Of a stretch of 64,000 nucleotides of DNA, positions 20,617-21,305 are shown in pieces. The translations under genes were made by a program, and so were the position numbers. Every line of letters starts with the position of its first letter. Position 1 is the first letter of the stretch. This DNA comes from Planctomycetota bacterium. GTDB taxonomy: Bacteria; Planctomycetota; SZUA-567; H5-PLA8. Under the pieces are notes generated by a model. The model worked only from the letters and a program-made list of their open reading frames with translations, searched no databases and had not been told where the DNA came from. Location of the stretch: assembly GCA_036504595.1 (NCBI GenBank), contig DASXUX010000022.1:18104-82103 (forward strand). Reading direction: 5' to 3'.

Positions 20617-20716
20617 GGTTCTTTCTTTGGCTTATGGTTTCAGGGTTCTTAGTTCATCGCCTTTAACGCGGCCGATCTTAGCACGCGAACAACGCTTAAT
20701 CAAACTTGCCGCCGTG

Positions 20717-21141
20717 CTGTAAAAAAGTGCACATGTGTTGATTGTGTGCCACGGGCAGCCTCTGTTCGCCGTTGGCTACACCGTGCATTCAGCCATCAAA
20801 GCGCCCAGCTTTCATCAACGCTTCCTGTAAAAAAGTGCACATGTGTGGCACGCTTGTGTTCGCGCGTCCTTTTGCGCGAACTCAAGCGTGCGCTCCGGCG
20901 AAATTCTGTCCAAGAGCGCACCTGTGCACGAAAACCAGTCTGCACCTTTTCTGCTTGCAGACGATGCCTTCAGCACCCGAACCCCAGAATTCTCACCACG
21001 CATTTGTCCAGAACTGCACCGTGCGCATCAGAACCGCGACCGTAAGGGAGCGGCGCAGTCCAAAGCCTCGCTTTCTTGTCCAAAACTGCAGGTCGTGTTC
21101 CGTTGAGCTCTCCCCGCCTGTAAAGAAGTGCACATGTGCAC
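20717..21141. repeat. array of six degenerate ~21-bp boxes CTGTAAAAAAGTGCACATGTG(CAC) in the 690-bp gltX upstream region
   Basis: Boxes at 20717-20737, 20825-20845, 20906-20926, 21006-21023, 21078-21097 and 21118-21141. Box 6 contains the perfect 14-bp palindrome GTGCACATGTGCAC. The region is markedly less GC-rich than its flanks. Confidence 0.75.
20741..20786. repeat. family F palindromic element, intergenic copy (ATTGTGTGCCACGGGCAGCCTCTGTTCGCCGTTGGCT...)
   Basis: Shares about 40 nt with the in-frame copy at 27524-27568. Confidence 0.8.
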
Positions 21142-21305
21142 AAACCTAACCCACCAACACTCAAAGACTCCTTTTGCGAAGACAGAGTTACCAACCCGAC
21201 CTCCATAGATAGTGACGTATCAGCGAAGACAATCTTGCATATATTTCATATTATTTTTGGTTAAACTTTGAGCACATTTGCGCTGTTGCCTGCTTTGTGG
21301 TTCGG

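Follow-up and report, generated by a model that had tools for sequence, protein, structure and literature searches.

The 689-bp gap upstream of gltX (positions 20617-21305) in a 64,000-nucleotide stretch of planctomycete DNA (contig DASXUX010000022.1, hereafter the window) holds six similar short boxes, here called array 1. This array is one copy of a dispersed, clustered and strictly oriented family of intergenic repeats, of which two planctomycete genomes have shown three loci so far. The source contig record (JGI 3300035523, Ga0376481_000107; 229,906 bp, from an uncultured organism) is offset from the window by 18,107, window position x being position x + 18,107 of the record.

The gap has a GC content of 51%, as against approximately 60% across the window, and no gene has been called in it by JGI, NCBI or ENA. 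The 21-mer CTGTAAAAAAGTGCACATGTG has two exact occurrences, at positions 20717 and 20825, and a third with a single mismatch at 21118 (no occurrence is expected from shuffled sequences). A degenerate 15-mer derived from the boxes, TGCRSTTYTKKACAR, has exactly six matches when at most one mismatch is allowed (20717, 20825, 20906, 21004, 21076 and 21118), all on the same strand and none elsewhere in the 64 kb, the chance expectation being 0.16; a weight matrix scan likewise confines the boxes of array 1 to the gap. Their identity to the reference box ranges from 73 to 100%, and their start-to-start spacings are 108, 81, 98, 72 and 42 bp. A preliminary description, made from the letters of the sequence, had proposed an array of palindromic boxes spaced 80-110 bp apart in a lower-GC noncoding region upstream of gltX, with no convincing open reading frame (ORF). 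That the array is real and non-random is borne out by the counts above, as is the low GC content, and the ORFs that cross the gap (135 aa on the + strand; 78 and 62 aa on the - strand) have a GC content at third codon positions (GC3) of 0.50-0.60 versus 0.79-0.82 in real genes, as expected of noncoding DNA. The proposed spacing, on the other hand, is not borne out, and a perfect 14-bp palindrome is present in box 6 only (a search allowing up to two mismatches adds just box 3), whereas most boxes are not palindromic and have an asymmetric core.

The preliminary description had also held that an absence of other genomic copies would mark the array as a random local duplication, and other copies do exist. 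Extension of the source contig by exact look-ups of the proteins at the window ends, which brought the genome sequence read to 82 kb overall, revealed a second array in the same genome (array 2; L018:13875-14765). The 891-bp gap that contains it (positions 15372-16262 of the source contig record) is 22.6 kb away from array 1 and about 1.9-2.7 kb to the left of the first letter of the window. Its seven boxes are, in order, of subtypes B C B C B B C (defined below), and its orientation is opposite to that of array 1. When metagenome contigs were searched with the 21-mer, one further locus was obtained, L003 (its sequence is the same as that of L007-L009), where four boxes with 62-72-bp periods (26-nt repeats separated by 36-46-nt spacers) are followed by an AT-rich stretch. 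The 654-aa protein encoded downstream of this array has relatives in Phycisphaerae and Planctomycetes, which points to a second planctomycete, and the VTT protein of the locus has no close homologue in a database that contains the proteins of the window's metagenome-assembled genome (MAG), so that the L003/L007 organism probably differs from that of the window. No match to the exact 21-mer was found in a scan of GTDB genomes, and the matches to a two-box pattern in these genomes (Porticoccaceae, Methanolinea and a Bacteroidota MAG) proved to be unrelated perfect tandem repeats. Scans and BLAST searches of plasmid, phage and viral contig collections returned no similar DNA, and text searches of the literature for the box motif returned nothing relevant. 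Logan contigs of the window's organism are 100% identical and give no copy-number information; all are short, and contig ends inside the arrays are therefore uninformative.

The three arrays share the same anatomy. All occupy gaps of 0.7-0.9 kb between co-directional genes, the order being NADK, Imm33-like ORF, array and gltX for array 1, Type ISP restriction enzyme, array and a 444-aa secreted protein for array 2, and YHS, VTT, array and the 654-aa protein for L007. They hold four to eight boxes with start-to-start periods of 42-119 bp and poorly conserved spacers of 16-93 nt. Polarity is the same at all three loci: the stop codon of the upstream gene is followed by an AT-rich segment and then by the boxes, with their ACAG end facing the start of the downstream gene. 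As the direction of this polarity differs between arrays 1 and 2, which are only 22.6 kb apart, it follows transcription and not replication, which suggests a role at the transcript level or one coupled to transcription. The last box of array 2 ends 29 nt before the ATG of the 444-aa gene, itself preceded by a GAGGAG Shine-Dalgarno sequence, so that transcription of this gene must cross the array. At L007, a sigma-70-like sequence (TTGATT-17-TATAGT) about 90 nt upstream of the first box reads into the array, and an element resembling a miniature inverted-repeat transposable element (MITE) separates the array from a TTGACA-17-AATGAT match of the downstream gene. This MITE-like element (L007:2606-2790) has inverted arms of approximately 38 bp, each with a hairpin of its own.

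Between genomes, conservation is limited to the boxes. One type B box of array 2 is identical to an L003 box over 26 of 26 positions, and no alignable conservation was found outside the boxes when units of array 1 were compared with those of the L003 array. Within the window's genome, arrays 1 and 2 have more in common: identity reaches 82% over a 121-nt unit made of a type C box, an 18-bp hairpin and a type B box (W2-W3 in array 1), and 72% over a 78-nt distal segment, the core of which, AAGACAGAGTWWCCAACCC, occurs solely beside the two arrays. Spacers of array 2 are either duplicated internally (94% identity between u2 and u4 over 140 nt) or filled with heptamer microsatellites. Array growth is thus by segmental duplication with the boxes preserved, and the earlier idea of a decayed repeat array stands as far as duplication is concerned but not for the boxes, which are retained between genomes though the spacers are not. 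A neutral and functionless minisatellite, decaying after local duplication or slippage in a genome prone to intergenic repeats, would account for the duplications inside the arrays (including the identity of boxes W1 and W2), for the heptamer microsatellites of the spacers and of almost all intergenic gaps in the genome, and for the lack of arrays in relatives. It is nevertheless very unlikely, as the same box is kept at three unrelated loci of two genomes with randomised spacers between copies, as polarity is constant throughout, and as a hairpin shared by arrays 1 and 2 shows a compensatory change.

Six of the eight box spacings in array 1 and at L003 (window 20717-21139; L003 872-1069) are multiples of three, and several boxes fall in one frame of a minus-strand ORF; in array 2 only two of six are, and the pattern, which comes with no GC3 coding signal, is taken as chance. 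A coding repeat protein or pseudogene, which these spacings and the ORFs present (135, 78, 62 and 104 aa) had suggested, was rejected on GC3 and on the spacings of array 2. A known structured RNA finds no support either: Rfam gave no match at gathering score for the arrays, with only sub-threshold matches to eukaryotic miRNA and snoRNA hairpins at E <=10.

The sequence of the box was defined from 17 copies (six of array 1, seven of array 2 and four of the L003/L007 array). On the + strand of the window, its 16-nt core reads YTGTMM-W4-STGCAS, and on the strand of the flanking genes the box reads ..CAC-(2-4 nt)-GTGCAS-N4-KKACAR. Core positions T2, G3, T4, G13, C14 and A15 (TGT and GCA) are invariant in 17/17 boxes, and positions 5-6 are either AA or CC, always covarying. 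T4 stands opposite G13 in every box, which makes the invariant positions asymmetric, and the spacing between the inverted arms varies, being 2 nt in GTGCAC-AT-GTGCAC and 4 nt in CTGCAC-CTTG-GTGCAG. The conserved unit is therefore the asymmetric core and not the 14-bp palindrome, and the same two features argue against the symmetric sites for a dimeric DNA-binding protein envisaged initially. Three subtypes of approximately 26 nt, mutually about 65-75% alike, can be distinguished: type A (TGCACCAAGGTGCAG-AAAATT-ACAG), type B (CACCACATGTGCAC-TTTTTT-ACAG) and type C (GGTGCACAGGTGCAG-TGTT-GGACAA). A T-rich tract is found, on the sense strand only, in all nine type B boxes. The features of array 1 and its surroundings are listed in Table 1.

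Table 1. Boxes, associated features and flanking genes of array 1 (window coordinates)
Feature	Position	Strand	Remarks
Box W1, type B	20717..20742	-	Sense ..CACATGTGCAC TTTTTT ACAG; final box ahead of gltX
Box W2, type B	20825..20850	-	Identical to W1 over 22 nt; 3' arm of compound hairpin, then U6
Box W3, type C	20906..20929	-	Sense GTGCACAGGTGCGC TCTT GGACAG; 5' arm of compound hairpin
Box W4, type C	21004..21027	-	GCGCACGGTGCAG TTCT GGACAA
Box W5, type C	21076..21097	-	ACCTGCAG TTTT GGACAA
Box W6, type B	21118..21141	-	Sole perfect 14-bp palindrome; 5-bp hairpin and TTCTTT tail, flagged by scan as terminator-like on -
Degenerate type-A-like remnant, seventh box-like site	~20939..20960	-	AAAGGTGCAGA; matches type A boxes of the L003/L007 array
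U-tracts after W6, W2 and W1	~21118-21125, 20825-20832, 20717-20724	sense strand	
Inverted repeat between W3 and W2	20848..20891	-	18-nt arms, 94% complementary, 8-nt loop; conserved in array 2
Compound sense-strand stem-loop	20822..20930	-	W3 core pairs with W2 core around 18-bp hairpin; ends 1 nt before U6
Distal segment common to array 2	21170..21246	-	72% identity over 78 nt; core AAGACAGAGTWWCCAACCC
AT-rich stretch, array end nearest upstream gene	21200..21265		Promoter-like + strand match at 21226-21254
Weak sigma-70-like TTGATT-17-TAAGAT, candidate gltX promoter	20675..20703	-	8/12, by eye, under scan threshold; 13 nt downstream of W1
gltX, downstream of array 1	19003..20616	-	Pfam tRNA-synt_1c and Anticodon_2
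Imm33-like 94-aa ORF, upstream of array 1	21306..21590	-	GC3 just 0.62

A strong structural signal lies in the unit formed by W3, W2 and the hairpin between them, for which a minimum free energy (MFE) of -51.9 kcal/mol is predicted (z = -7.0). The homologous unit of array 2, u2-u1, has a predicted MFE of -53.7 kcal/mol (z -5.0) and also ends 1 nt before a run of six U; in the consensus fold of the two, 30/30 pairs are kept, one of them by a compensatory U-A to C-G change. In MFE folds of the sense strand, a box core pairs with the next core in 10/15 neighbouring pairs. A predicted sense-strand stem-loop followed by a U-tract, as in intrinsic terminators, lies at W6, W3-W2, W1 and u2-u1, but the boxes differ from such terminators in their 26-nt conserved sequence, in the invariant ACAG after the U-tract, in the lack of a U-tract in half of them, and in having compound stems with large internal loops.

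The reading we tentatively prefer, as plausible but far from assured, is that the boxes form a repeat family similar to repetitive extragenic palindromic (REP) sequences and bacterial interspersed mosaic elements (BIME), or to STAR elements, which would act on the sense strand as a hairpin/attenuator insulator between neighbouring genes. The array would be transcribed with, or into, its flanking genes, and the quasi-palindromic cores would pair within a box or between neighbouring boxes. The type B boxes would then present a stem-loop and immediately after it a U-tract, so that the array as a whole could be a series of partial intrinsic terminators or attenuators combined with hairpins protecting 3' ends. 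The downstream gene would in this way be insulated from the upstream transcription unit, gltX apparently having its own weak promoter just past W1. REP/BIME clusters have been proposed to work along similar lines. A trans-acting factor that recognises the boxes, and maintains or spreads them, would complete the scheme; recognition by such a factor is implied by the near-perfect conservation of the box.

Several observations weigh against this attenuator/insulator reading. Single boxes have MFE values of 0 to -9.1 kcal/mol, no better than those of random 24-mers of the genome (mean -3.85), whole-region folds are unremarkable (z -1.6 and -1.9), and types A and C, which make up half of the boxes, are devoid of a U-tract. 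Neighbouring cores would be expected to pair in any repeat with a quasi-palindromic sequence. The gene downstream of array 2, with a strong terminator 29 nt ahead of it, would be silenced unless that terminator were leaky or regulated. Intrinsic-terminator-like sites are not generally enriched in this genome (24 found versus 18.7 +/- 3.6 expected). Just one compensatory change backs the structure, and a symmetric protein site could yield the same change. Finally, a conserved sequence of 26 nt with invariant TGT, GCA and ACA is unneeded by simple terminators, and sequence-specific recognition by a protein fits it better. A conserved RNA hairpin in every box, for its part, was rejected, folding energies being at random expectation with no strand asymmetry.

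This last point against the attenuator/insulator reading leads to the possibility, on balance rather unlikely, that an oriented, non-symmetric protein binds the boxes sequence-specifically as double-stranded DNA, candidates being a tandem winged-helix response-regulator dimer or a two-domain protein, and that the arrays are a cluster of operators or upstream activating sequences, or a polar roadblock, for the adjacent promoter. It would explain the invariance of TGT, GCA and ACA in 17/17 boxes, the 10-bp distance between the hexamers CTGTAA and STGCAC, the joint switching of AA and CC at positions 5-6 and the identity of the box between genomes whose flanks have wholly diverged, a sequence conservation not accounted for by structure alone; W1, moreover, ends 13 nt upstream of the weak -35/-10 match for gltX. 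Against this stand the lack of solitary boxes upstream of other genes in the 82 kb, the lack of conservation of the boxes upstream of orthologous gltX or of the 654-aa gene, their irregular spacing (42-119 bp) without clear helical phasing, and the absence of an adjacent regulator gene. Type A boxes look NtrC-like, yet no sigma-54 promoter accompanies them, and the resemblances to Pho, CRP and TyrR boxes are imperfect.

A more ambitious version of the recognition step, which we regard as decidedly unlikely, is that the boxes are the cis part of a system spreading horizontally among Planctomycetota. The asymmetric 26-nt box would be recognised, in DNA or in the transcript, by a protein or ribonucleoprotein dedicated to it, which would either build and maintain the arrays by non-CRISPR recombination or transposition, or use them for regulated processive anti-termination or attenuation. 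Such a system would jointly explain the 26/26 identity of a box despite protein identities of only about 50-70%, the leader-like segment conserved within one genome and the strict polarity.

The arrays are missing at the orthologous loci of relatives, where conservation had been proposed as a check on the initial description. Relatives with 70-77% identical GltX have toxin-antitoxin genes or a gap of 44-145 bp upstream of gltX, and no boxes; L001, L002 and L022, whose GltX is 74-76% identical, contain no box scoring at least 13 bits, and the P0008 contig has merely a 44-bp gap at this place. The L007 organism gives the same picture: its relatives, in which the 654-aa protein is 63-71% identical, have no boxes upstream of the orthologous gene. 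As relatives have no boxes and the same boxes are found upstream of unrelated genes at two other loci, array 1 is, judging from these comparisons, not a gltX-specific regulatory region. A gltX operator cluster was likewise rejected, the sites being neither conserved upstream of orthologues nor symmetric. The gltX neighbourhood in relatives (L001:3280-4000, L002:3250-4000, L022:3103-3687; P0004, P0011) is a toxin-antitoxin hot spot, with PIN and HEPN domains apparently fused to gltX in mis-called proteins and PemK/MazE downstream. The counterpart of this site in the window is taken up by the Imm33-like ORF, with its atypical GC3 of 0.62, and array 1.

Such a setting raises the question of whether the arrays do nothing for the host genes and are remnants or cis-sites of an element that moves horizontally; they might be binding repeats of a recombinase or transposase, att sites of the arm type, or iteron-like origin repeats left behind in insertion hot spots. 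An identical 26-mer is present in two genomes that at best share protein relatives of about 50-70% identity, GC content is below the genome average, the loci are variable (as with the toxin-antitoxin genes in the gltX upstream gap of relatives), array 1 adjoins the Imm33-like ORF, array 2 the Type ISP restriction enzyme gene and the L007 array the MITE-like inverted repeat, and arrays 1 and 2 are mutually inverted. The boxes also begin with TGT, as do many DDE transposon ends. This origin is unlikely all the same: no transposase, integrase, Rep or relaxase gene occurs in the 82 kb, gltX and hisI, which are housekeeping genes, lie in the 22.6 kb between the inverted arrays, the neighbourhood of NADK and gltX being ancestral, the box heads point inward, which is wrong for transposon ends, and spacing is not iteron-like. 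Plasmid, phage and viral collections contain no matches, and the unrelated spacers of the two genomes speak against a recent transfer of a whole array.

Among known repeats, the closest layouts are those of tandem head-to-tail REP clusters and of STAR elements. REP/BIME sequences are short extragenic quasi-palindromic repeats, often arranged in head-to-tail tandem groups 20-100 bp apart and reiterated with flanking DNA, and REP families are found in some species and are missing at orthologous loci of others, attenuation and mRNA stabilisation having been proposed as roles (PMC3733652). The boxes are also short, extragenic and quasi-palindromic, clustered head-to-tail and absent from the orthologous loci of relatives. 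They differ from REP/BIME in that the boxes begin with YTGT and end with GCAS, with no GTAG or CGTC tag (the defining feature of REP; PMC3733652), in that single-box stems of 3-6 bp are no better than random, and in that all copies are co-oriented, with no solitary ones in 82 kb. This 82 kb, which holds two arrays, contains no RAYT (Y1_Tnp) gene. STAR elements of Staphylococcus are short direct repeats interspersed with a recurring spacer of at least 40 bp, intergenic and present at several loci per genome; the loci differ between species, the arrays expand and contract, and the 14-bp consensus is T(G/A/T)TGTTG(G/T)GGCCC(C/A) (PMC3532100). The likeness is one of layout only: the consensus of the boxes is unrelated, they belong to another phylum, and they are longer (about 26 nt), with three subtypes, an AT-rich distal segment and strict polarity. 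The defining sequence features of STAR and REP are not found in the family, which is best called a previously undescribed one within the known class of clustered interspersed intergenic repeats. Repeats of the mycobacterial interspersed repetitive unit (MIRU) type also lie between co-directional genes in a fixed orientation, as near-identical tandem units of 46-101 bp with small ORFs that overlap the flanking genes. The box arrays share this co-directional setting and fixed orientation to transcription, but here the box alone is conserved and there are no overlapping small ORFs.

Some features of CRISPR arrays are present, such as conserved repeats with non-conserved spacers, an AT-rich leader-like end conserved in one genome, and a repeat common to distant genomes. 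A CRISPR array was rejected, as the repeats are heterogeneous (seven to eight of 16 core positions invariant), the spacers are irregular (16-93 nt) and either duplicated or microsatellite, and the JGI gene calls for the 82 kb include no member of a Cas Pfam family; the preliminary description had reached the same view. Trans-acting small RNAs, a sponge RNA with a repeated recognition motif, or a degenerate CRISPR-like array transcribed from the AT-rich leader are highly improbable for related reasons. The succession of leader-like segment, conserved repeats and variable spacers, the geometry of the L003 array, the promoter match reading into the L007 array and the conservation of the leader-like segment between both arrays of one genome would all fit. 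Yet the likeness of the three subtypes does not go beyond about 65-75%, the spacers include duplicates within an array as well as microsatellites, cas genes are absent from the 82 kb, arrays 1 and 2 have no promoter match in the corresponding segment, Rfam gives no match, and GGA motifs are not enriched in array 1 by a rough count by eye against a composition estimate, a count on which a CsrA-type sponge RNA was also rejected.

Further classes of element were rejected on other grounds. Plasmid-type iterons or an origin are contradicted by irregular spacing, by the lack of rep, dnaA and dnaN genes and by a GC skew that is negative throughout 12-47 kb, and a chromosomal origin, DnaA-box cluster or terminus by the lack of a GC skew switch at 21 kb. 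The minimum of cumulative GC skew lies at window 47000-53000, where gene strand switches; with no dnaA or dnaN, it is probably not an origin. A Tn7/Mu-type transposon end is excluded because arrays 1 and 2 enclose gltX, hisI and other chromosomal genes with their heads inward, and because DDE/AAA+ transposition genes are lacking. Sigma-70 or sigma-54 promoters inside the boxes were excluded by eye and by scans, there being no conserved -10 at a fixed distance on either strand, and a misfit to the -24/-12 spacing and to GG/GC. Type III antitoxin repeats, integron attC, dif/Xer, parS, LexA, CRP, TyrR, Pho and NtrC boxes and rrn boxA bear only a partial resemblance to the boxes as these sites are generally known, with wrong spacing or a half-site.

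Planctomycetota are genetically little studied, and this box has so far not been reported from any interspersed repeat family. Base-for-base conservation between distant genomes at non-orthologous sites points to a recognition factor, and box arrays may serve generally in the phylum to insulate or attenuate transcription from one co-directional gene to the next. If a dedicated protein came to light, it would form with the box a new orthogonal cis/trans tool; were the arrays no more than REP-like structural repeats, they would modestly extend a known theme. In practice, the arrays can serve as a marker for assembly breaks, strain typing and annotation, and should not be annotated as gltX operators.

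The public gltX call (514 aa) starts 23 codons late, omitting window 20547-20616 and with it the class I HIGH motif. Starting from the ATG at 20616 gives MNHSSSVRVRFAPSPTGYLHVGG, restores ..PSPTGYLHVGG and agrees with relatives. Elsewhere in the window, a c-di-AMP riboswitch of the ydaO type was found at 30679-30822 on the + strand (81.8 bits, E = 1.8e-17), upstream of ORF 30849-33047; it is the only Rfam match of the window at gathering score. Downstream of the Type ISP gene region, L018 carries an intergenic 18-mer tandem repeat (18102-18160; 3.3 copies, 100% identity) and two copies of a 112-bp unit (18981-19202). Microsatellites with a period of 7 nt and differing units (3-7 copies) occur at 15 sites of the window (8711, 18276, 21601-21654, 22648, 25313, 26348, 26417, 28117, 28178, 41109, 50150, 51877, 51932, 58369 and 61229) and at four sites of L018 (14153, 14329, 19059 and 19171), with at least one in every gene gap checked between 21.6 and 28.2 kb (gaps according to JGI gene calls). 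The pattern resembles the short tandemly repeated repetitive (STRR) heptamer sequences of cyanobacteria.

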